This document shows positions 5,053 through 56,475 of a stretch of DNA of 64,000 nucleotides, piece after piece. The stretch's first letter is position 1. Every line of letters starts with the position of its first letter. The stretch is from an uncultured Anaerolineales bacterium (lineage in GTDB: Bacteria; Chloroflexota; Anaerolineae; Anaerolineales; RBG-16-64-43), in NCBI GenBank assembly GCA_964353865.1, contig CAYGXJ010000078.1:1853-65852 (forward strand), given 5' to 3'. The position numbers and the translations under genes are program-made. The notes beneath the pieces were generated by a model. It saw only the letters and a program-made list of their open reading frames with translations, made no database searches and was not told where the DNA came from.

Positions 5053-6357
5053 ATGAGCAAGATGGCGGTTCTCTCGGGTGTGCTGGCGGCCGGGGTTCTG
5101 CTGGCCGGTTGCACATTGAATCTCCCGGCGGTAAACGTCGCTCCGCCGGCCGTGCCGACGTCGTCGGCGACGACGGCGAACGCAACAGCTTCCGCAATGC
5201 CAAGCCTCACCGCCACGCCGCCTCCGCCCACCGTGACGGCGACGGGCACGCCTGCGCCCGTCGGCCCGCCCATCGAAAAGCTGCAGGCCGGGCTCGAGAT
5301 CACGGTCCGCACCGTCCGCATGGTGGATGCCACAAGCGGCTGGGCCATCGGCGGGCCGGCCGCGGCGAGCGATCACATCCTGCGAACGGGCGATGGCGGC
5401 GCCACCTGGCGCGACGTGTCACCGCCTGCGGCCGAACAACCGGGGACGCGCCTGACCGCGGTGGGTGCCTTCCGCAACGGATCGACGGCCTGGGTAGCGT
5501 ACTCACTCGAGAGTCCGGGAGAGACGCCCCAGGTGGCGCTGATCTGGCGCACCCAGGATAGCGGGGCGACGTGGAGCGCGAGTGCGCCGCTGGATATCGA
5601 CCCGCTGATGGGAATCTACCAGCCCTCGCATTTGCTCTTCGTGGACGCAGACCACGGCTGGCTGCTGGTGCACGCCGGCGCGGGCATGAACCACGACTAC
5701 ATTGCCATCTACCACTCCACGGATGGCGGCCGCGCCTGGTCCAAAATCGTTGATCCCTTCCTCACCGACAACGTGCAGAGCTGCTACAAGACCGGCCTGC
5801 TCTTCACCTCGCCGCTCGAAGGGTGGATGACGGGCGACTGCGGGGGCGTAGCGCCGGGGGTGCTGTTCTTCCATTCCCCGGATGGCGGCGAGAATTGGGA
5901 CCGGGTGCGCCTGCCGCCCCCGCCCGAGACCCCCGATCTTTTCGAGCGCTCGGATGTGGCCTGCGGCGCGGACTCGCTCAGCTTCCCCGACCCGCAGCAC
6001 GGGCGCATGGTCGTCTTCTGCCGTATGTACAACGAGACTCCCACTCGGGATGTGTACTACCTGTACGAGAGCGACAACAGCGGACGCTTGTGGCTGCCGA
6101 TGAGCTTCCCCGGCGAGCGGGCGGTGTTCCTGACCAAGGACCTGGGCTGGGCCGTCGGGCCGACCGTTCGTCGCACGACCGACGGAGGGCAGACCTGGAA
6201 AGAAATGGGCAAGGTTGCCTGGCAGGCGGAGTTCAGCTTCGTGAGCGAGACACTGGGTTGGGCGGTGGCCCGCGCACAGGAGGAACTGGCGCTGGTGACG
6301 ACCCGCGACGGCGGCCGCGATTGGCTGATCCTCAAACCGAAGACCATCGCGCCCTGA
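5053..6357 (+). CDS. BNR/Asp-box repeat lipoprotein (Ycf48-like beta-propeller)
   Basis: Lipobox LLAGC and a Pro/Thr/Ala linker. Six S/DxDxGxxW Asp-box repeats (GDGGATW, DSGATW, DGGRAW, DGGENW, DGGQTW, DGGRDW). GGGAGG RBS. Confidence 0.8.
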   Translation: MSKMAVLSGVLAAGVLLAGCTLNLPAVNVAPPAVPTSSATTANATASAMPSLTATPPPPTVTATGTPAPVGPPIEKLQAGLEITVRTVRMVDATSGWAIGGPAAASDHILRTGDGGATWRDVSPPAAEQPGTRLTAVGAFRNGSTAWVAYSLESPGETPQVALIWRTQDSGATWSASAPLDIDPLMGIYQPSHLLFVDADHGWLLVHAGAGMNHDYIAIYHSTDGGRAWSKIVDPFLTDNVQSCYKTGLLFTSPLEGWMTGDCGGVAPGVLFFHSPDGGENWDRVRLPPPPETPDLFERSDVACGADSLSFPDPQHGRMVVFCRMYNETPTRDVYYLYESDNSGRLWLPMSFPGERAVFLTKDLGWAVGPTVRRTTDGGQTWKEMGKVAWQAEFSFVSETLGWAVARAQEELALVTTRDGGRDWLILKPKTIAP

Positions 6358-6434
6358 GGCGGGCGGTGCGCAAGTCCCCCTGAGACCGACCGCAGTTGGT
6401 GAGGCGGCGTGCGCTCTAGACTGTAGCCGCGGGT

Positions 6435-7829
6435 TCAGCCGGCGTCAGGCGAGGCGCGCCGATCGCGCCGGGCGGCGCGGCGCCGCGCCAACTCATCGTT
6501 CAGCGCGCGATGCACTTCGCGCGTGATGGGGAAGGCGGCCGCCGCGGCGATGGCCGCCACCAGCAGCGCCGCCGGGACCCAGGTGGTGAGCGCGCGGATG
6601 CCGAGCAGCGCCGTCGGGGCCTGGACCGCGGCATTGGGCTGGTAGCCGGTGAGTTCGAGTACCCACCCGACCGAGGCCAGCGCCAGCGAGGTGCCGAGTT
6701 TCTGAATGAATCCGGACAGCCCCCCGAAAACCCCCTCCTGCCGCTCGCCGCTTTCGTACTCCACCGACTCGAGCGCATCCGCACCCATCGCGGTTGGCAA
6801 AACGTGCGCCGCGGATATGCCCAGGCCAGCCAGCACGGCGACGATAAAGACGGGCACGACCGCCGCCGCCGGCACCCACCACAGCGCCACGTGCAGCACC
6901 GCCCACACGGCGGTGGCGATGACGAAGGCCCACTTCTTCTCGTAACGCCCGGCCAGCCAATTGACCACCGGCAGGAAGACTATCGCGCTGGCAAGGATCG
7001 TCGCCAGGAAGATGGGCGTGTCGGCTTCGCTCACCTTGGCCCAGTAGATGAGGAAGTAGGCGAACACGGCCTCGACCATCGCGATGGCCAGCCATGCCAG
7101 CCCGTTGAGGAGCAGTGACAACCAGAAGGCGCGGTTGCGTAGCAGCACGCGCACCGAACGGGCGATGTCGCTCGTGCGCGCCGATTGAAAGTCCGCGCGC
7201 TCGCGCACGAGCGCCACCAAAACGAAGTAGGGCACCATGCTGACCAGGCCGATGCCGACGCCCGCCCACTGGAAAGCAGCCTGCACCGAGCCGGCGGCCT
7301 CGAACACGAACGGCAAGGCCACCGCCGCGAGGAGCCCAGTGACGATCGACACACCGGCGCGATAGGTGACAATCGATGTTCGCTCGTCGGTGTCGAGCGA
7401 GAGCTCGGGTGTGAGAGCATAGTACGGGCCGGAGACGAATGTGTACGCCAGGTCGAAGAGCAGGTAGATCACCAGGTAGTAGGCGGCGCGCCCAGTGGAC
7501 GTGGCCAGAGGCGGGACGAACCACAGCAACGCGTAGAACACGGCCATGGGCACCGCGCCGGCCAGCATGTACGGGCGGCGCCGCCCCAGCCGGCTGCGCG
7601 TGCGATCGGAAAGCGCGCCGACCAGTGGATCGTTGACCGCATCCCAGATGCGCGCGATGAGAAGTATCGTCCCGGCGACGCCTGGGCGAACCCCGGCGAC
7701 ATCGGTGAGGAAGAAGAGAAAATAGAAGGGCAGGACCGTGCCCGCCGCCACCGAGGGCGCAAACTCGCCCAGGGCGAACACCAGCTTGTGGTACCACCTC
7801 AGTTTGCGATCGCTCGCGGAAAGCTGCAT
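6435..7829 (-). CDS. glycoside-pentoside-hexuronide (GPH):cation symporter family MFS transporter
   Basis: Polytopic protein. GPH signature region ARIWDAVNDPLVGALSDRTRSRLGRRRPYM. AAGGAG RBS before ATG 7829. Confidence 0.85.
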   Translation of the reverse strand: MQLSASDRKLRWYHKLVFALGEFAPSVAAGTVLPFYFLFFLTDVAGVRPGVAGTILLIARIWDAVNDPLVGALSDRTRSRLGRRRPYMLAGAVPMAVFYALLWFVPPLATSTGRAAYYLVIYLLFDLAYTFVSGPYYALTPELSLDTDERTSIVTYRAGVSIVTGLLAAVALPFVFEAAGSVQAAFQWAGVGIGLVSMVPYFVLVALVRERADFQSARTSDIARSVRVLLRNRAFWLSLLLNGLAWLAIAMVEAVFAYFLIYWAKVSEADTPIFLATILASAIVFLPVVNWLAGRYEKKWAFVIATAVWAVLHVALWWVPAAAVVPVFIVAVLAGLGISAAHVLPTAMGADALESVEYESGERQEGVFGGLSGFIQKLGTSLALASVGWVLELTGYQPNAAVQAPTALLGIRALTTWVPAALLVAAIAAAAAFPITREVHRALNDELARRRAARRDRRASPDAG

Positions 7830-46570: not shown

Positions 46571-47419
46571 TCAGGTCACGCCCTCGAACAAATCACGCTC
46601 GCGGCGTCCCGCCACAGGCGCAGGGACTGCGCGCATGTAGTGCTCGCTGGCACCCAGCCAGCGCTGGAGGAAAGCCAGCGGCCCCAACATCCGTCCACCG
46701 CCCTGGCTCGAATGGCAGGCGGAGGCTTCCTCTTTGACCTTCATGACTCGCCGGATCGATACGGAGGCGTGCACCGGAAAGTCCATTCCCGCGAACGAGG
46801 TCAAATCGATATCACCGTTCTTGCCGAAATGATGCGGGTCGCGGCCAAAGAGCGGCAGCACCCGCACGGCCAAGCGCAGGAAGCCGCGCCCGAAGGTGTG
46901 GAAGTACAGCTTCTGCGGTGCAAAGGCGGGCAGTCCCTCGAGCTCCAATGTATCGTCGCCGGCGATGCGAAATGCGGCGACCGTCGCGTTATGAATTGCG
47001 ATGTGATCGGGGTGCCGATATCCACCGATCGGGTCGAAAGTAAGGACAACCTGCGGACCGATGCGGCGGATGAGCGCTGCGACCTCGCGCGCCACCTTTT
47101 CGAGGGGCGCGGCAGCCAGCGCCTGTGGGTGGAGATTATCGGGCGAGCCGGGCATTCCCGAATCGCGATAACCCAGGAAGTGTACCTGGGTCAGGCCGAG
47201 CGTCTGGGCCGCACATCGCAGCTCCGATTTTCGCATCTCGCCGACCGAAGCAAAGCCTTTGAGGTCCGGGGGAGCCTCGCCCACCTCGCCGGCCGTGGCG
47301 CAGGCAAGATGCACCTCCACGCCCAAGAGCGCGTACAGGGCCAGGGTGCCCCCGGTGCCGAAGGTTTCGTCGTCCGGATGGGCCAGCACAGCCAACAACC
47401 GTTTCGGATTCGGCGTCAT
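46571..47419 (-). CDS. PIG-L/LmbE-family N-acetylglucosaminyl deacetylase
   Basis: LLAVLAHPDDETFGTGGTL and HPDH motifs. 282 aa. Confidence 0.85.
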   Translation of the reverse strand: MTPNPKRLLAVLAHPDDETFGTGGTLALYALLGVEVHLACATAGEVGEAPPDLKGFASVGEMRKSELRCAAQTLGLTQVHFLGYRDSGMPGSPDNLHPQALAAAPLEKVAREVAALIRRIGPQVVLTFDPIGGYRHPDHIAIHNATVAAFRIAGDDTLELEGLPAFAPQKLYFHTFGRGFLRLAVRVLPLFGRDPHHFGKNGDIDLTSFAGMDFPVHASVSIRRVMKVKEEASACHSSQGGGRMLGPLAFLQRWLGASEHYMRAVPAPVAGRRERDLFEGVT

Positions 47420-47579
47420 AGTTCCTCATTCCCTTGCTCACCGGTCTTACTTGCCGCGGGACATGGCGCATTGCGAGGCATGGGCCTCGCGGCATTCTAC
47501 CGCGCCCCTGGTCCTCTACAAAGAGCGGCCCACCCAGGGTGTCGGTGGGCGCGTGGAATGACGAGCCGGCGTGCGGGGA

Positions 47580-48482
47580 TCACGCGAAGCGGGTGAGGCC
47601 GGCGGCTTCGGCGGCCGACCGTGCCCGCGCATACTCTTCCTGGGTCAGCGGGCGGCTGATGTCGGCGTGCTGGCCCGCATGATAGTCCGGGCGGTATTGG
47701 TCCATCAGGTTAAGATACGTCGCGCGGGAGATCGAGCGCGCGAGAAAGCGTGCGATCTGAGAAGTTCCCGCCAGGTTGTTGGGCAGGACGAGATGCCGAA
47801 CCAGCAGCCCGCGCACGGCCAGACCCTCCTGATCCAGCACCAAATCCCCAACCTGGCGATGCATCTCTTTCACCGCGCCCCGATTGACGGCCGGATAATC
47901 GGCGGCGTGCGAGTAAGCCAGCCCTACCCGCGCGTCGGAATACTTCATATCCGGCATGTAGATATCAATCACCCCGTCGAGCAGGTGCAGCGCCTCGAGG
48001 CAATCGTATCCGCCACTGTTGTAGACCAACGGGACGCGCAGCCCCTGGTGCGCGGCCAGGTGCACGGCTTCCAGTATCTGCGCCACCACGTGACTCGGCG
48101 AGACCAGGTTGATATTGTGGCACCCGAGTTCCTGCATGTGAAGCATCATCGCGGCCAGCTCGCCGGCATCGACCTCCGGCGCATCGGGGCTCTGGCTGAT
48201 GGTGTGGTTCTGGCAGAACTGACAGCGCAGGTTGCAGCCCGAGAAGAATATCGTGCCTGAGCCGTTGCGCCCGGTGAGCGGGGCCTCTTCTCCGAAGTGG
48301 GGGTGGAAGGATGCCACGCGCGCCCAGCGCCCGATGCGGCAGGTGCCGGCGTGGGTTGTGCGGTTCACCCGGCAGCGGCGCGGGCACAGGTCGCAGGAGG
48401 TGAGACAGCCGGCCGCCTCTCGGGCGCGCACGGCCAGTTCACCAGAGCGATGCAGAATGAGATAGGCGGGGAATGCGGTCAT
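47580..48482 (-). CDS. PflX-like (COG1313-type) radical SAM protein, intact cluster motif
   Basis: GCNLRCQFCQN (CX3CX2C) plus an N-terminal CDLCPRRC-x10-C motif. ATG 48482. Confidence 0.85.
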   Translation of the reverse strand: MTAFPAYLILHRSGELAVRAREAAGCLTSCDLCPRRCRVNRTTHAGTCRIGRWARVASFHPHFGEEAPLTGRNGSGTIFFSGCNLRCQFCQNHTISQSPDAPEVDAGELAAMMLHMQELGCHNINLVSPSHVVAQILEAVHLAAHQGLRVPLVYNSGGYDCLEALHLLDGVIDIYMPDMKYSDARVGLAYSHAADYPAVNRGAVKEMHRQVGDLVLDQEGLAVRGLLVRHLVLPNNLAGTSQIARFLARSISRATYLNLMDQYRPDYHAGQHADISRPLTQEEYARARSAAEAAGLTRFA

Positions 48483-48507
48483 GGACGGGCGCCGCCCGGC
48501 GCGCCGC

Positions 48508-49473
48508 TCACACGGCAATCGTTGGGCCGCGTTCGATGTGCGCGATGCGTCCGAAACGATGCAAGCCAGCTTCACTCGCCAAGGTCTTGGCGCACTCCAA
48601 TTCGCGCGGCGTGATCTTGCGATACAGATCGCCCAGTCCCTTGGCGCTGCGCGTGGGCCGGAAGTCGTCCACCAGATGGAGATAGGTGTCGGGCGATATC
48701 TGCCGCGCTAGAAAGCGGACAACGTAGGAAGTGCCGGCCAGGCGGTTAGGTAGCACCACGTGGCGCACGAGCAGCCCGCGCACGGCGCAGCCCTCATCGC
48801 TCACCATCAGATCGCCCACCTGGCGGTACATCTCACGCAGGGCGGCGCGGTTGATGCGCGGGTAGTCGCGCACATCGAGGAAGCGGCGCGCCTGGCGCGT
48901 ATAACCGAAGCGCATCTCCGGGGCGTAGATGTCGACAACCCCCTCCAGCAAGGCCAGAGCCACCGGAGCGTCGTATCCGTTTGAGTTGTATACCAGCGGC
49001 AGAGTCAAACCTTGGCGGGCGGCAATTGCCAGCGCCTCAAGGATCTGTGCCACGACGTGGCTGGGGTTGACCAGATTGATGTTGTGGCAGCCAGCGTTTT
49101 GCAGCTCACGCATGCACGCCGCCAGGGCGGCGGGTGTTACCTCGCGCTCCGAGCTTTCATGGCTGAAGGCCATCGGGCGCTGTTCGTTAAGCGGCGCGCC
49201 GGGTTTGCGAAGTTCGCCGCCGGCGAAGAGGATCGCGCCCGAGCCGCGCGATCCGACGAGGCTCGCCTCTTCGTGGTAGTTGGGGATGAAGGCCAGCATG
49301 CGCGCGTCGCGCCCGGTGCGGCATGCGCCAGCTTCGCGAGTGCGATCGGCACCGCAAACGCGCGGGCACAGGTCGCACGCCGAAAGGCGCGCGCGGGCGC
49401 GCTTGGCCCGCTCGGCGAGAGCCGTCTTGCGGCCAAGGCGCAGGTAACCCGGGGCTGGGTCAGAAGCTGACAT
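48508..49473 (-). CDS. PflX-like paralog lacking the radical-SAM CX3CX2C cysteines
   Basis: Colinear with the downstream paralog (GCHNINLV.PSHVVAQILEA, PLVYNS.GYD, RGLLVRH.VLPN.LAGTS), but the cluster motif reads GGELRKPGAPLNEQ. The N-terminal CDLCPRVC-x10-C motif is retained. Confidence 0.8.
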   Translation of the reverse strand: MSASDPAPGYLRLGRKTALAERAKRARARLSACDLCPRVCGADRTREAGACRTGRDARMLAFIPNYHEEASLVGSRGSGAILFAGGELRKPGAPLNEQRPMAFSHESSEREVTPAALAACMRELQNAGCHNINLVNPSHVVAQILEALAIAARQGLTLPLVYNSNGYDAPVALALLEGVVDIYAPEMRFGYTRQARRFLDVRDYPRINRAALREMYRQVGDLMVSDEGCAVRGLLVRHVVLPNRLAGTSYVVRFLARQISPDTYLHLVDDFRPTRSAKGLGDLYRKITPRELECAKTLASEAGLHRFGRIAHIERGPTIAV

Positions 49474-49611
49474 GCGGCAAAGGGGCGGTTGGCATGGGCA
49501 TCAAAACGAATCTCGCGGACGGCACCTGGCAAATTCGCGCCGACCCCACTTGATTGTACCTAAGGTTGGATTGACGGCCCGGCGCGGGGTATGGTATGAT
49601 GCTCGGCATTC

Positions 49612-49689
49612 GGGGGCGTGGTGTAGCTGGCCTAACACGCGGCCCTGTCAAGGCCGAGACCGCGGGTTCGAATCCCGTCGCTCCCGCCA
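49612..49689 (+). tRNA. tRNA-Asp (anticodon GTC), CCA encoded
   Basis: Hand-folded. Acceptor GGGGGCG/CGCTCCC (one G-U pair), D stem GTGT/ACAC, anticodon stem CGGCC/GGCCG with loop CTGTCAA, T arm GCGGG-TTCGAAT-CCCGT, then G-CCA. Confidence 0.9.
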
Positions 49690-50282: not shown

Positions 50283-51071
50283 ATGACGTCTTCCAAGGCC
50301 GAACACGCCTCGCTCAATCCTCTCCAGCTCAAACCTGTCAACCGTCTGGTGGCCGGCGTGCCTCTCTACATTCAGATAGCAGAAGGACTCCTGACCTGGG
50401 TCGATTCGGGTCGCCTCGCTCCTGGCGATCGCCTGCCGCCCGAGCGCGACCTGAGCCAGATGCTTGGCGTGAACCGAATGACTTTGCGCCGTGCGCTGGA
50501 GATGCTCGAGGCGCAGGGGCTGCTGGCGCGCCGCCAAGGTGCCGGCACCTACATCGCCGACCGCAAGATCGAGCGCCAGGCCGGGCAACTAGTCTCGTTC
50601 ACCAAGCGCATGCGCGAGCAAGGCTTCACGCCTGGGGCGAAGGTGATCTCGTTTGAGGAGCGGCCGTGCGGCGCAGCTCTGGCGGCGGCGCTGCGGCTGC
50701 CGGCATTTGCGCCCGTCTACGACATCCGCCGGCTGCGATTCCTCAACGGCCAGCCGGTGCTGCTCGAGCACTATACGCTCCCGATCATGCGCTTTGCGCG
50801 CCTGGCGCGATACGATCTTGAGCAAAACTCGTTGTACGAGGTGCTGCATGAGCACTACGGGGTGGATGTGCATCGGGCGCGCCTCAGCCTGGAGGCGGTG
50901 CTGGCCACCGCGTACGAGTCTGAGCAATTGCTCGTGCCGCTGAGCGCACCGCTGATGCTTGAACGCCGGCTTTCATATGATGCTCTGGGAGCGCCGGTGG
51001 ACCACGGCGAGGACTACTACCGGGGGGACCGTTTTCAATTCGTCACCGAGACGGCGGCGCTGGCGCTGTAG
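50283..51071 (+). CDS. GntR/HutC-family transcriptional regulator (wHTH plus UTRA domain)
   Basis: PLYIQIAEGL...GDRLPPERDLSQMLGVNRMTLRRALEMLEAQGLLARRQGAGTYI followed by a UTRA-like C-terminus. ATG 50283. Confidence 0.88.
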   Translation: MTSSKAEHASLNPLQLKPVNRLVAGVPLYIQIAEGLLTWVDSGRLAPGDRLPPERDLSQMLGVNRMTLRRALEMLEAQGLLARRQGAGTYIADRKIERQAGQLVSFTKRMREQGFTPGAKVISFEERPCGAALAAALRLPAFAPVYDIRRLRFLNGQPVLLEHYTLPIMRFARLARYDLEQNSLYEVLHEHYGVDVHRARLSLEAVLATAYESEQLLVPLSAPLMLERRLSYDALGAPVDHGEDYYRGDRFQFVTETAALAL

Positions 51072-51122
51072 ACCTGCGCCGTGCGAGGCGGCCATTCCGC
51101 CAGGTGAAAGAGGGACGAGGCG

Positions 51123-52643
51123 ATGGGCCAATACTTCGAACTGCTGAGCCGCGATCAGGTGCTGCGGGTTCACGAGGCATCACTGGAGATTCTCGACGAG
51201 GTGGGGCTGCTCATCCGCAATGCGCAAGCGCGTGAGATCCTCGCTGCACATGGCTGCCGCCCGCTGCCCGGGAGCGAGATCATGCACTTCCCGCGAGCCG
51301 TGGTTGAAGAGTTCCGCGTCTCGATCCCGCCCACCTTCACTTTTGGCGGCCGCGAGCCGCGCTTCGACCGGACGATCCCGGACGACAGCCCGGTGATGGT
51401 CACCGGCAGTTCGGCGCCGAACATCATCGACCCGCTGACCGGGCAGGAGCGACGCGCGCGCTCGGAAGACTTGGCACGCATCGCCCATCTCGTCAACGGA
51501 CTCCCGGGGTACGACGTCTTCTCCATCTCAACTCTGGCCGAAGACGCCCCTGCGGGCATGTTCAGCCTCACCCGCTTCTATGCCGCACTTAAGAACTGCG
51601 CCAAGCCGGTGCGCGGCAGCGGCCCGCCTGAGGACACCGAGAAGATTCTGCAACTGGCGTATACCATCGCCGGAAGCGAAGCCGCCTACCGGGCACATCC
51701 TTTCGTGACCCATCACTACTGCCCGGTGGTTTCGCCGCTGACGATGGATTTCGATTCGACCCAGATGCTCATCTATTACACCGAGCAAGGGCTGCCCTGC
51801 TACCCGACCATTGTCCCCAACGCCGGGCTCACATCGCCGCTGACTCTCCTGGGGACTTTAGCCCAGGGCAATGCGGAATTCCTGGCCGCGGCGGTTCTCG
51901 AGCAAATGGTGCGGCCCGGCAAAGCTACGATCTACGCCATGTTACCTACCGTGGCCGATATGCGCAGCGGGGCCTACGCGCCGGGCGCGATCGAGACCGG
52001 CGTGCTCTTCGTGGGGCACGCGCAGATGGCACGTTTCTACAATGTGCCCAACGGCGGCTACATTGGGCTGACCAATTCCAAACTCAACGACGCCCAATCG
52101 GGCTACGAGACCGGTATGTCGCTGGCGCTTGGCCTGGCGGCCGGCGTGGACATGTTCAACACCGGCGGGTTGCTGGACGCGTTGATGGCATTCGATTTTG
52201 CCAAGGCGGCCATTGACGACGAAATCTTCATGATGGCCAAGCGGGCCAAGCGCGGACTGGAGTTCAGCGAGGACAACCTGGCCCTCGATCTGATTCGCGA
52301 GGTGGGACCGGCGGGCATGTTTATGGACAACGCGCACACGTTGGAGCGCATGAAGACGGCCGCCTTCCTGCCCGAGATTTCGGATCGCGACGCTCGCGCC
52401 CAGTGGATCGAGCGCGGCGCCCTGGACTCACAGGAGCGCGCGATGCGCAAGGTGCAAGACATTCTGACCTGCGACAACCCGGTTGTGTTTTCCGCGGAGG
52501 TCGATGCACGCGTGCGCGCCAAATTCGCCGGTCTGGTGGCTGGGGACTCGCGCCCGCCCGAAGGCTGGACACGCGCCGCCCGGACCGCCCGGCGTGAGCG
52601 CACTGAACGGCGGCGACGCGAAGCGGCTGGCCAGAGCAGCTGA
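51123..52643 (+). CDS. MttB-superfamily (non-pyrrolysine) methyltransferase, probable quaternary-amine:corrinoid methyltransferase
   Basis: 506 aa with no in-frame TAG. MttB-like along the full length (LSRDQVLRVHEASLEILDEVG..., IDDEIFMMAKR..., TLERMK). Substrate unknown. Confidence 0.8.
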   Translation: MGQYFELLSRDQVLRVHEASLEILDEVGLLIRNAQAREILAAHGCRPLPGSEIMHFPRAVVEEFRVSIPPTFTFGGREPRFDRTIPDDSPVMVTGSSAPNIIDPLTGQERRARSEDLARIAHLVNGLPGYDVFSISTLAEDAPAGMFSLTRFYAALKNCAKPVRGSGPPEDTEKILQLAYTIAGSEAAYRAHPFVTHHYCPVVSPLTMDFDSTQMLIYYTEQGLPCYPTIVPNAGLTSPLTLLGTLAQGNAEFLAAAVLEQMVRPGKATIYAMLPTVADMRSGAYAPGAIETGVLFVGHAQMARFYNVPNGGYIGLTNSKLNDAQSGYETGMSLALGLAAGVDMFNTGGLLDALMAFDFAKAAIDDEIFMMAKRAKRGLEFSEDNLALDLIREVGPAGMFMDNAHTLERMKTAAFLPEISDRDARAQWIERGALDSQERAMRKVQDILTCDNPVVFSAEVDARVRAKFAGLVAGDSRPPEGWTRAARTARRERTERRRREAAGQSS

Positions 52644-52690
52644 CGTGTGCCGCGAGGCCGGGAGTGGGAGAGGGGCAGGCCCGGCCCTCA

Positions 52691-54766
52691 ATGCATACCC
52701 ATCGATATGGGACGGATGACACTGTGACCGACAAGCCAACCTCAATCCCCGAACACCAACTCGTGCTCGTGCCATCCGGGCGGCGCGGACTCATCGCAGA
52801 GGGGACCGACCTGCTCACCGCCTGCCGCTCACTGGGGGTGGATCTGGAATCGATTTGCGGCGGCAAGCAGACCTGCGGCAAATGCCAGGTCGTCGTGGAG
52901 GAAGGGCGCTACGAGAAACACGGCCTCACCTCCGTCGCACGTCACCTCTCGCCGCCCGAGGCGCAAGAGATCGCCTGCGCGGCCAAATTCGATATCCACG
53001 GCCGACGGCTGGCCTGCGCCGCCCGCGTGCAGGGCGAATTGCTGGTCAGCGTGCCGGAGGAAAGCCAGGCGCGCAAACAGGTCATCGCCAAAGAGGCCAC
53101 TGAGCGCACGATAACCATCCAGCCCGCGGTGCGGCTCATCTATATAGAAGTGACCCCGGCCAACCTGGGTGACCATCGCGGGGATTGGCAACGGGTGCAG
53201 CAGGCGCTGCGTGAACAATGGCAGATCGCGTCGCCGGTCCTCGACCCGGCCGTGCTGCCCAGCCTGCAACCGGCGCTGCGCCGTGGCGGGAGCACGCTGA
53301 CCCTCACCCTGTGGGACGAGCGCGAGGTGCTGCGCATCGAGCCCGGCTATGTGGAGCGGCTGGTCGGCCTGGCGGTGGATGTGGGTTCAACCACTATCGC
53401 GGCTCACCTGTGCGACTTGCGCACCGGCGCCGTGCTCGCCAGCGAATCGATGATGAATCCCCAGGTGCGCTTCGGCGAAGACCTGATGAGCCGAGTGTCG
53501 TACGGCATGAGCGAGCCGCAAGGCGTGGCACGCATGCACCGTGCGGTCATCCGCGCCATCAACGAATTGGCCGAGAAGGCCGCTGCCCGCGGCGGGTTTA
53601 CCTCGGGCGAGATCGTCGACAGCGTGCTGGTGGGCAACAGCATCATGCATCACCTGCTGCTCGGGCTTGACCCGGTTGAGCTGGGCGGTGCGCCGTTTGC
53701 GCTGGCCACCTCCGGACCGCTCGACATGAAGGCGCGCGACCTGGGGCTGGCGTTCCACCGCGGCGCGCGGGTGCACGTGCTGCCGTGTATCGCCGGGCAT
53801 GTGGGCGCCGACCACGTGGCGGCGCTGCTGGCCGAGGCGCCGCACAAGCAAGATGAAGCGATGCTGCTCATCGATGTGGGGACCAACGCCGAGATCTCGC
53901 TCGGCAACCGCGAGCGAATGATGTGCGCCTCAAGCCCGACCGGGCCGGCCTTCGAGGGCGCGCAAATCACCCACGGCCAGCGCGCCGCTCCGGGCGCCAT
54001 CGAGCGGGTGCGCATCGACCGCGTCACGCTCGAGCCGCACTTGAAGGTCATCGGCCATGAGACCTGGGTGGAGCCGCAGGCTGCGGACGAAGTGCCTGCC
54101 CAGGCACGTGCCACCGGCATCTGCGGCAGCGGCATCATCGAGGCCGTAGCGGAGATGTTCCTGGCCGGCATCATCACCTCCGACGGCCGCTTCGACGAAC
54201 AGGCCGCCGAGCGCTCACCGCGCGTGCAATTCGAAGGACGCACCGGGCGCTACGTGCTCGCGGACGCCGCGCAAACCGCTACCGGCGCGCCGATCGTGGT
54301 CACTCAGAGCGATGTGCGCGCGATTCAATTAGCCAAGGCGGCGTTGTATGCCGGCGTGCGGCTGCTCATGGAACATCAGGGCGTCGCGCAGGTCGACCGC
54401 ATTGCACTGGCCGGCGCCTTCGGCAGTTACATCAGCCCGCGCCACGCGATGATCCTGGGCATGATCCCAGACTGCGAGCTGGAGCGCGTGCAGGCCGTAG
54501 GTAATTCGGCGGGCGACGGAGCGCGCATTGCCCTGCTCGACCGCGAGCAGCGAGTGGAGGCGGAGCGGCTGGCGAGATGGGTGGAGCACGTGCAGACAGC
54601 CACCGAGCCCACCTTTCAAGATCTGTTCGTCGCGGCGCTTGCCTTGCCGCACGCGAGCGACGCCTTCCCTCATTTGCAGGCCGAGCTTCCTGCCCCGCGA
54701 ACCGCCGCACGGGCGCGGCCGCGGCAAAGCCACACCAACCCATCCCACCTGGAGAATGCGGAATGA
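52691..54766 (+). CDS. corrinoid reductive-activation ATPase (RACo / RamA-like; N-terminal [2Fe-2S] ferredoxin plus ASKHA ATPase)
   Basis: CGGKQTCGKCQV...LACAARV plant-type 2Fe-2S motif. ASKHA region GLAVDVGSTTIAAHL, LLIDVGTNAEI. Start ATG 52691 (52664/52724 are alternatives). Confidence 0.82.
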   Translation: MHTHRYGTDDTVTDKPTSIPEHQLVLVPSGRRGLIAEGTDLLTACRSLGVDLESICGGKQTCGKCQVVVEEGRYEKHGLTSVARHLSPPEAQEIACAAKFDIHGRRLACAARVQGELLVSVPEESQARKQVIAKEATERTITIQPAVRLIYIEVTPANLGDHRGDWQRVQQALREQWQIASPVLDPAVLPSLQPALRRGGSTLTLTLWDEREVLRIEPGYVERLVGLAVDVGSTTIAAHLCDLRTGAVLASESMMNPQVRFGEDLMSRVSYGMSEPQGVARMHRAVIRAINELAEKAAARGGFTSGEIVDSVLVGNSIMHHLLLGLDPVELGGAPFALATSGPLDMKARDLGLAFHRGARVHVLPCIAGHVGADHVAALLAEAPHKQDEAMLLIDVGTNAEISLGNRERMMCASSPTGPAFEGAQITHGQRAAPGAIERVRIDRVTLEPHLKVIGHETWVEPQAADEVPAQARATGICGSGIIEAVAEMFLAGIITSDGRFDEQAAERSPRVQFEGRTGRYVLADAAQTATGAPIVVTQSDVRAIQLAKAALYAGVRLLMEHQGVAQVDRIALAGAFGSYISPRHAMILGMIPDCELERVQAVGNSAGDGARIALLDREQRVEAERLARWVEHVQTATEPTFQDLFVAALALPHASDAFPHLQAELPAPRTAARARPRQSHTNPSHLENAE

Positions 54767-55446
54767 GCGAGGAATTGGATCTGACCAAGCTGCCGACCGA
54801 GGAGATCGTCCTGCAGATCAAGGACGACCTGTATGATGGACTGGCGGCTGAAGTTGCGGCCGCGGTCCGGGAACTGCTGCGTCGCGGCCTGACGCCCTAC
54901 GAGGTTCTAACCGGATCGCTCGTGGCCGGGATGGATGTCGTGGGTGCGGATTTCCGCGACGGGGTCCTCTTCGTGCCCGAGGTGCTCATGGCCGCCAAGT
55001 CCATGAAGGCCGGCATGGAAATCCTGCGCCCGCTGCTGGTGGAGACCGGCGCGCCGCAGATCGGCACGTTCGTCATCGGGACGGTGAAAGGCGACATTCA
55101 CGACATCGGCAAGAACCTGGTGGCGATGATGATGGAGGGGGCCGGGTTCAAGGTGGTGAACCTGGGCATCAACGTGGACGCGGAGAAGTTCATCGGCGCG
55201 GTGAAGGAGCACAAGCCCACTCTCTTCGGCATGAGCGCGCTGCTGACCACGACCATGCCGTACATGGGGGTGGTGATCAAGGCTCTCAAGGAAGCCGGGT
55301 TGCGCGACGACCTGATTGTCTTGGTCGGCGGCGCACCGCTTAACGCCACTTTTGCCGAAGAGATCGAGGCCGACGCCTACTGTCGCGATGCGGCCATCGC
55401 GGTCGAAACGGCCAAGAAACTGGTCGCGCTCAAGCGCGGGGGCTAG
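54763..55446 (+). CDS. corrinoid (B12-binding) protein, cap plus Rossmann domain
   Basis: DxHxxG base-off/His-on motif GDIHDIGKN, MSALLTTT, VGGAP. ATGA overlap with the activase stop. Confidence 0.9.
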   Translation: MSEELDLTKLPTEEIVLQIKDDLYDGLAAEVAAAVRELLRRGLTPYEVLTGSLVAGMDVVGADFRDGVLFVPEVLMAAKSMKAGMEILRPLLVETGAPQIGTFVIGTVKGDIHDIGKNLVAMMMEGAGFKVVNLGINVDAEKFIGAVKEHKPTLFGMSALLTTTMPYMGVVIKALKEAGLRDDLIVLVGGAPLNATFAEEIEADAYCRDAAIAVETAKKLVALKRGG

Positions 55447-55587
55447 CTTGGCCGCATGGGCAGGAGCGCGTCGGACGAGGCGGGACGGCGGCCAGGGGCT
55501 TGGGCGGGCCGACAATGGGCATCCGCTACCCACCTCGATCGGTGACATCGATATCGGTCCAGACCACGTCGCCAACAAGGAGGCCGA

Positions 55588-56475
55588 ATGACAACCTGGA
55601 GTGAGTTGCTGGCGCAGCCAGGAGTGATCCTCGCCGATGGCGCGATGGGCACGATGCTGATGGCAAACGGACTGGCATTCGGCAATTCCCCTGAACTATG
55701 GAACGTCGATGAGCCGCAGCGCGTGGGAGAGGTTCACGCGGCTTACCTCCAAGCGGGCGCGCGCATCCTCCTGACCAACACATTCGGCGGGAACCGCTTC
55801 CGCTTGCAGCTCCACAACTTGCAGGAGCGTGCCGCCGAACTGAACCGCGCTGCGGCACGCCTGGCTCGCGAAGCCGCGGGGGGCACCGCGCTGGTGGCGG
55901 GCGACATCGGCCCCAGCGGGGGCATCCTGGCGCCCCTCGGCGAACTGGAGCCCGAGGCAGCCGTGGCCGGGTTCGCCGAGCAGGCGGCGGCGCTGGTCGA
56001 GGGCGGGGTCGACGTGATCTGGCTCGAGACGATGTCGAGCCTGGAAGAGATGCGCGCGGCTATCGACGGAGTGCGGCGGGCGTCGGCGGGTATCCCGATC
56101 ATCACCACGATGACGTTCGATACGCGCGGGCGGACGATGATGGGTGTGACGCCCGCGCGCGCGGCGCAGACTCTGAGCGGATGGGGGGCCGTGGCGGTGG
56201 GGGGCAACTGCGGCAACGGGCCGGACGAAATCCTCGAAGTGGTGGCCAAGATGCGGGCGACGGCGCCCGCCGCCACGCTCGTGGCCAAAGCCAACGCCGG
56301 CGTGCCGCACCTTGCGGCCGGGCGTCCGGTTTACGGCGCCGGCCCGGACGACATGGCGCGCTACGCCATCGCGGCCGTCGAGGCCGGGGCGCGCGTCATC
56401 GGCGCGTGCTGCGGAAGCACACCAGACCATTTGCGAGCGATGCGCGATGCGCTCGCAGCCAAAGGCCTGCTCTAG
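55588..56475 (+). CDS. stand-alone homocysteine S-methyltransferase-domain protein (MetH Hcy-module-like)
   Basis: ILADGAMGTML, LLTNTFGGN, Zn-ligand Cys in GGNCG and GACCGSTP. AGGAGG RBS. Confidence 0.85.
   Translation: MTTWSELLAQPGVILADGAMGTMLMANGLAFGNSPELWNVDEPQRVGEVHAAYLQAGARILLTNTFGGNRFRLQLHNLQERAAELNRAAARLAREAAGGTALVAGDIGPSGGILAPLGELEPEAAVAGFAEQAAALVEGGVDVIWLETMSSLEEMRAAIDGVRRASAGIPIITTMTFDTRGRTMMGVTPARAAQTLSGWGAVAVGGNCGNGPDEILEVVAKMRATAPAATLVAKANAGVPHLAAGRPVYGAGPDDMARYAIAAVEAGARVIGACCGSTPDHLRAMRDALAAKGLL

Follow-up and report, generated by a model that had tools for sequence, protein, structure and literature searches.

Does a gene that has lost the defining cysteines of a radical S-adenosylmethionine (SAM) enzyme, and that sits directly beside a canonical copy, still encode a working protein? 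The question is raised by a locus in a 64,000-nt stretch of DNA, hereafter the window, from an uncultured Anaerolineales bacterium (contig CAYGXJ010000078.1), in which two PflX-like genes lie on the minus strand. Copy A (48508..49473) encodes 321 aa and copy B (47580..48482) encodes 300 aa counted from MTAFPAYL. A preliminary description of this locus had presented the two genes as adjacent, colinear paralogs 25 nt apart, the downstream one canonical and the upstream one cysteine-less. Both statements hold. The spacer occupies 48483..48507 on the minus strand, and BLASTP aligns the products colinearly with 52% identity over 300 residues (E 5e-100). B carries the CX3CX2C motif as CNLRCQFCQN (C83, C87 and C90; 48213..48236, minus strand); at this position A reads GGELRKPGAPLNEQ in frame, so that all three cluster cysteines are gone from an intact open reading frame (ORF). 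The pair is a pseudoenzyme paralog case inside an orphan radical SAM family, and the analysis below indicates that the cysteine-less copy has been kept by selection.

The lesion itself was examined at the level of codons and of protein. The three cysteine codons of A are swapped in frame (TGC>GGC, TGT>AAA and TGC>GCG), as had been proposed, and there is no frameshift; the accompanying claim of a single extra codon did not stand, as the alignment gap shows five additional codons in A between the conserved flanks. Neither of the other two reading frames of the lesion region contains a cysteine motif, and a hidden or compensated frameshift was therefore rejected. The residues of A aligned to the motif are GGELRKPGA, and no CX3CX2C is found anywhere in the protein. 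The replacement loop, F83-R99 (FAGGELRKPGAPLNEQR; 49177..49227, minus strand), occupies the position of the cluster loop. At its C terminus A extends into a 14-residue tail, which B does not have.

Domain and family searches place B as a typical member, and A as a derivative, of the PflX-like family (COG1313 / KEGG K04070). Both share its N-terminal CX2CX3CX10C motif and its GCHNINLV, YNxGGYD, RQVGDL and RGLLVRH blocks, and the GCHNIN, RQVGDL and RGLLVRH blocks do not vary among 130 aligned family sequences; A is set apart by the absence of CX3CX2C-QN and of about 30 of 125 conserved positions. In Pfam, B matches the radical SAM domain PF04055 (30.4 bits, cut-off 29.5), whereas A has no Pfam match (E<=0.01) and no NCBIfam match. 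The scores of B against the NCBIfam models TIGR02493 PFLA (20.4 bits, cut-off 231.75), TIGR02494 (17.3, cut-off 174.35) and TIGR02495 NrdG2 (32.6, cut-off 131.15) all fall short, as does a weak match to the AmmeMemoRadiSam enzyme; B has no NCBIfam equivalog and no sequence relative in the PDB. A is 48–54% identical, over at least 93% of its length, to proteins carrying the JGI name ‘putative pyruvate formate lyase activating enzyme’ (E ~1e-80 to 1e-90). A PADLOC search for a defence system was negative, the only match, a 14-bit one of B to pVip, being noise. The preliminary description had held that the family has no established function, and indeed no resource searched contained a characterised member. 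Our literature searches found no relevant paper on PflX, COG1313 or MJ0674 proteins, nor on radical SAM pseudoenzymes or members without CX3CX2C.

If A were drifting, its relatives should betray it, and they do not. A search of 5.8 billion proteins returned ten clusters of A orthologs, all without a Pfam domain, at 72–92% identity; below these, identity drops sharply to canonical, PF04055-bearing members at no more than 54%. We refer to these close orthologs, which overall are 72–93% identical to A, as the A clade. The cysteines are absent from all ten aligned orthologs, and the replacement peptide is almost invariant. Coding sequences were extracted from eight A-clade loci, among them three Anaerolineae/Anaerolineales metagenome-assembled genomes (MAGs) from GTDB, and in all eight the ORF is intact and exactly 321 aa long. 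Pairwise Nei–Gojobori ratios of non-synonymous to synonymous divergence (dN/dS), for which synonymous distances reach saturation (dS 1.0–1.6), were 0.10–0.22 for A, 0.10–0.24 for B and 0.04–0.14 for the downstream PIG-L gene. Purifying selection on A is hence similar to that on B, without the relaxed selection or further lesions in relatives expected of a decaying copy, and the suggestion in the preliminary description that A is a conserved pseudo-enzyme is borne out.

The distribution of constraint within A is equally informative. Across the A clade the loop codons differ at many synonymous sites, but only one amino acid changes. The ratio pN/pS (non-synonymous to synonymous) is 0.06 for the new loop (residues 82–98), compared with 0.72 for the adjacent linker (residues 99–110) and 0.25 for the whole gene; the corresponding values for B are 0.04 for the cysteine motif and 0.21 for the whole gene. 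No other part of A is as constrained as the replacement loop, and the constraint on the A-clade loop GGELRKPGAPLNEQR matches that on the catalytic motif of B, the motif that it replaced.

A second, more distant cysteine-less clade, which we call A' (P0019, P0121, P0122, P0123 and P0124; loci L008, L092-L098 and L177), bears on the age of the loss. Its genes are intact and under purifying selection (dN/dS 0.15–0.27). Neighbour-joining trees join A' to A in 100/100 and 94/100 bootstraps; in a reciprocal search P0019 matches A-clade proteins better than any canonical member; and A and A' have in common the derived substitutions Q270D, M184A and S199L and the loss of K188, which is R in A and L in A'. 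On these three grounds a single old duplication and cluster loss, before the split of A from A', seems likely. Identity between B and its counterpart B' is down to 61%. When 1.84 billion representatives at 50% identity were searched with a profile, all of A and A' fell under a single one, P0019 (534 bits), with 334 bits for the match after it. A is carried by three of the 80 best GTDB loci, and its orthologs are found in Anaerolineae/Anaerolineales MAGs and metagenome contigs with the gene order of the window; the environments of origin are represented by metagenomes of freshwater sediment and peat. The combined clade is old but taxonomically narrow.

To describe what A has kept, we scored it against the 125 alignment columns with a conservation of 90% or more among canonical members. 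A differs at about 30 of these and retains some 75%. Lost is the whole CNLxCxxCQN block, including the invariant Q94-N95, and H65, G67 (PHFGEE), G165, M184, D186E, K188R, N266H and Q270D are also altered. Retained are C33, C36, C40 and C51 of the N-terminal CX2CX3CX10C motif (49321..49377, minus strand), C129-H130-N131, YN, GY, EMxRQVGD and RGLLVRH. In an hhalign alignment with Escherichia coli PflA, the pyruvate formate-lyase activating enzyme (PFL-AE), CLMRCLYCHN falls on the cluster motif, DTNG on YNTGG and LDLK on PDMK. Asp129 of PFL-AE helps to hold the cation that bridges the SAM carboxylate (PMC10267522). Since A and A' are changed in this Asp129-type motif, the substitutions would affect the SAM site beyond the cysteines themselves. 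We infer that A cannot bind the SAM-cleaving [4Fe-4S] cluster.

The overall fold appears to have outlasted the active site. AlphaFold 2 single-chain models gave a mean predicted local distance difference test score (pLDDT) of 88.7 and a predicted template modelling score (pTM) of 0.90 for A, with the N-terminal cysteine region at pLDDT 95–97; B scored 95.9 and 0.94, and the order of secondary-structure elements is the same. Compared with the PDB by Foldseek, both models have PFL-AE as their nearest structure (3CB8, 3C8F and 8FO0; target-normalised template modelling score 0.68–0.70; E 5e-9 for B against 3C8F), and the top PDB matches of A are all radical SAM enzymes. On these models, A is predicted to keep the PFL-activase-like partial (beta/alpha)6 TIM-barrel. 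The likeness to PflA has its limits: sequence identity is 12–15%, PflA lacks the N-terminal four-cysteine extension, the glycyl-radical-activase scores in NCBIfam lie far below cut-off, no glycyl-radical enzyme is linked to the locus, and A is without any cluster site.

Whether A depends on B was assessed from gene order in relatives. The order A then B is kept in the A' lineages L008 and L092, where the A'–B' spacer is 21 nt. In the window, no terminator-like site was found in the 25-nt A–B spacer, and on this ground the two genes are probably co-transcribed as one transcript. At two A' loci, L093 (SRR22234382) and L094 (Ga0187865_1000130, 102 kb), A' is followed directly by PIG-L and B is missing. 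These loci are not mutual closest relatives by A' identity, which suggests that B was probably lost twice. In addition, a 2-bp TA insertion (CACTTATACAGG versus CACTTACAGG) frameshifts B in two A-clade loci from different samples, L001 (9380-9520) and L002 (9154-9294), by comparison with L003; A is intact beside the frameshifted gene in both. The reverse case, in which B would remain and A be gone, occurred at none of the A–B loci examined.

On balance we think it somewhat probable that A is a functional, selection-maintained PflX-like derivative that no longer cleaves SAM reductively and that can persist without an adjacent B. In outline, one tandem duplication in an Anaerolineales lineage gave rise to A and B; A then lost the three cluster cysteines and the Q-N pair and acquired the changes at H65, G67, D186E, K188R, N266H and Q270D, while keeping the fold, the N-terminal four-cysteine site, C129/H130 and some three-quarters of what the family conserves. 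What had been the cluster loop was rebuilt, in the A clade, into the new motif. The product is most likely a non-radical protein that binds a ligand or a partner, possibly a metal, and would do so through the remodelled pocket together with the N-terminal four-cysteine site. A would usually be co-transcribed with B, and would probably act in the same pathway. The further proposition that A has an autonomous role, with no strict dependence on an adjacent B, falls a little short of probable in our judgement.

Several observations weigh against this reading. The loop varies by indels in the A' clade and is not conserved there, so that the argument from a constrained loop holds for the A clade only. 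The rebuilt loop is also poorly modelled in A (pLDDT 53–54, below 50 for residues 98–106, within an uncertain stretch at 91–110). The trees are neighbour-joining trees only, and long-branch attraction among fast-evolving cysteine-less sequences is possible. The A–B pair is retained in 17 of the 20 loci examined, which fits cooperation; the B-less loci are short or partly fetched contigs, and a canonical copy may sit elsewhere in the genome; and the frameshift in L001 and L002 might have arisen recently by mutation, or be an assembly artefact common to two samples that are related. Finally, genomic context gives no clue to the ligand or role of A or B. In a survey of 77 single-copy loci of canonical members no conserved neighbour was found, the best candidate being a metallophosphatase at seven deltaproteobacterial loci.

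The alternative that survives best is that A is an obligate non-catalytic partner, forming a heteromer with B as scaffold, substrate presenter or regulator and having no function alone. The two genes share a strand and a short spacer free of terminator-like sites, their order and close spacing persist across the A/A' split despite the divergence of B from B', purifying selection on the two copies is similar, and A keeps most family-conserved surface and pocket residues. A precedent in concept is eukaryotic Dph1–Dph2, a catalytically asymmetric paralog pair in which one member does the chemistry and the other supports it. The likeness lies in the idea of a duplicated enzyme with one catalytic and one supporting paralog; unlike A and B, Dph1 and Dph2 lie outside the PF04055 barrel superfamily and both bind clusters, whereas the cluster site of A is completely gone and an A–B heteromer is hypothetical. 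Against obligate partnership, A' is kept at L093 and L094 with no B at the locus, and A is intact beside the frameshifted B of L001 and L002. Standalone cysteine-less relatives exist (P0227 and P0316), and PFL-AE, the nearest relative in structure, is a monomer and was matched here as a single chain. Moreover, since the whole downstream block is syntenic between the A and A' lineages, adjacency is weak evidence for interaction and can be explained by the synteny of the block. We regard obligate partnership as unlikely, although worth weighing. The preliminary description had suggested a role for A as scaffold or regulator of the adjacent active copy, and had asked whether the active/inactive pair occurs in related genomes. 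The pseudo-enzyme is indeed kept beside B in most loci, and such a role is possible, but it is weakened by the loci in which B is missing or frameshifted, which speak against an obligate association.

A different alternative is that A remains a radical SAM enzyme and binds its cluster at a non-canonical site, either the N-terminal CX2CX3CX10C motif or C119 with C129. SAM radical chemistry with non-canonical cluster motifs is known from ThiC and Dph2. In an alignment of 130 family members, cysteine-less ones included, the four N-terminal cysteines and C129 are invariant in 130/130, and C119 is Cys in every A-clade ortholog and Met in canonical members. However, the N-terminal site is present equally in all canonical members, which marks it as auxiliary or structural and not as a substitute for the lost one, and C119 is missing from the A' clade. 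The residues aligned with the cation/SAM-carboxylate site of PFL-AE are altered as well (in A, D186E and K188R; in A', Leu in place of Lys), and the invariant Q94-N95 after the motif is lost. The only candidate cysteines in A are C119, the family-wide C129 and the N-terminal four, none of which makes up a CX3CX2C equivalent; nearby cysteines, which the preliminary description had considered as a possible rescue, do not restore such a site. We consider a cryptic cluster site very improbable. As to what the retained cysteines do, the B model matches lipoyl synthase (LIAS/LipA; Foldseek E 1e-6 to 3e-5), and lipoyl synthase and MiaB-type enzymes resemble B in that an N-terminal cysteine motif precedes the radical SAM motif. 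The auxiliary-cluster motif of LipA is CX4CX5C, compared with CX2CX3CX10C here, and there is no sequence-level relationship, so that this match between models is a lead to the role of the N-terminal site and no test of it.

The notion that A is a decaying duplicate, a young pseudogene as yet without stop codons, can draw on its lost catalytic residues, its lack of any Pfam or NCBIfam match, its non-synonymous divergence of about 1.4-fold that of B at the deepest comparisons (0.20 versus 0.14) and its longer branch to canonical members (0.72 versus 0.50), but is essentially refuted by the 321-aa ORFs in all eight A-clade loci at low dN/dS despite dS of 1.0–1.6, by the lesion loop being itself the most constrained segment and by the retention of a second clade, A', since an older split.

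Loss of the cluster is not confined to A and A'. Further representatives without a complete CX3CX2C are P0227, P0245, P0280, P0282, P0316 and P0249, the last with Arg in place of the third cysteine. P0227, from two samples of marine metagenomes, has PEMRFG and MDD in common with A, and both P0227 (L174/L175) and P0316 (L176) are standalone genes on their contigs. The other cysteine-less representatives do not robustly join A/A' (26–43% bootstrap), and a grouping of P0227, P0245, P0280, P0282 and P0316 with A/A' was dropped in favour of independent losses. Cluster loss with retention of the scaffold seems to have happened several times in the family, and its recurrence suggests that the PflX-like scaffold is of use even without the cluster. 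More speculatively, and in our view improbably, the N-terminal four-cysteine site and the barrel pocket would harbour a second, radical-free activity of the PflX-like scaffold, in which the cluster-less forms (A/A', P0227, P0245, P0280, P0282 and P0316) have repeatedly specialised.

Two variations at the cluster-binding loop of other family members were noted in passing. In the cultured isolate Methylobacter marinus A45 (NZ_KB912877.1, match 6001-6885; locus L020) the motif reads GRNLRCEFCQN, the first cluster cysteine being Arg in an otherwise canonical protein. In P0238, P0239 and P0255, inteins are inserted exactly at the third CX3CX2C cysteine (CNLRCVF/C...intein...SN/CQN), which makes the cluster-binding loop of PflX-like radical SAM proteins the intein site; Pfam detects Intein_splicing in all three, plus LAGLIDADG_3 in P0239 and P0255.

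The surroundings of the pair are conserved in a way that separates the A and A' lineages upstream and unites them downstream. A-clade loci run, in order, from an MttB/corrinoid cluster through a GntR regulator, tRNA-Asp, A, B, PIG-L, an acyl-CoA dehydrogenase and PBP2 to CoA-transferases. At the A' loci L092 and L093 the cysteine-less gene instead follows the end of a nuo (NADH dehydrogenase) operon, not tRNA-Asp/GntR, and is followed by the same PIG-L, acyl-CoA dehydrogenase and CoA-transferase genes as in the window, these three being syntenic between the two lineages. The tRNA-Asp gene (GTC; 49612..49689, plus strand) forms the divergent upstream boundary of the A–B unit. Some 80 nt upstream of the start codon of A, a TACAAT hexamer (49553..49558, minus strand) is invariant in eight aligned orthologous upstream regions and may act as the promoter. 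The divergent intergenic region as a whole, 49553-49611 between A and tRNA-Asp, is highly conserved across the eight orthologous loci, with an invariant GTACAAT on the strand of A and, on the opposite strand, a tRNA-Asp promoter-like site, TTGACG-18-TATGAT.

The LmbE-type gene that had been placed 160 nt downstream of B on the same strand is there, a PIG-L/LmbE-family deacetylase at 46571..47419 on the minus strand (PF02585, 119.2 bits, cut-off 28.2). Its scores fall below the equivalog cut-offs for MshB (148 bits, cut-off 224), Mca (129, cut-off 277) and BshB (82, cut-off 195), and it is an equivalog of none of the three. PIG-L lies downstream of every cysteine-less A/A' copy and is missing near the 77 canonical single-copy loci. 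Upstream of it, a -10-like TAGAAT (47494..47499, minus strand) lies within GCGGTAGAAT, and the string GCGGTA[GA]AAT recurs upstream of PIG-L in the window and in the distant loci L093 and L094; this conserved element may act as the PIG-L promoter, and PIG-L is probably a separately transcribed syntenic neighbour. A functional partnership of PIG-L with the pair was considered and dropped, because the gene is missing near canonical members, has its own conserved -10-like element and is co-syntenic with unrelated genes; we treat it as a neighbour only.

On the other side of the tRNA gene, the window contains at 50283-56475 (plus strand) a cluster resembling methyl-corrinoid demethylation, which is syntenic in all A-clade loci. 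It comprises a GntR/UTRA regulator, an uninterrupted, non-pyrrolysine MttB-superfamily methyltransferase (51123-52643), a RACo-type corrinoid activase with a 2Fe-2S domain (52664-54766), a B12-binding corrinoid protein and an S-methyltransferase-family protein (55588-56475), all on the plus strand.

The cluster-binding cysteines define radical SAM enzymes, and there are few well-documented members that have lost the cluster entirely and still remain under strong selection. In this case the loss is old, the rebuilt loop is constrained like the catalytic motif, and losses recur within the same family, which is very widespread, with thousands of homologs in anaerobes. Annotation pipelines leave A unnamed or transfer to it the name ‘pyruvate formate lyase activating enzyme’, which is almost certainly wrong. 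If the scaffold does have a second activity, these proteins would form a class, so far undescribed, of radical SAM descendants that work without radical chemistry, and the A-clade loop would be a new ligand-binding element. The A/B pair is a natural experiment that separates cluster-dependent from cluster-independent roles, and offers biochemists a defined system.

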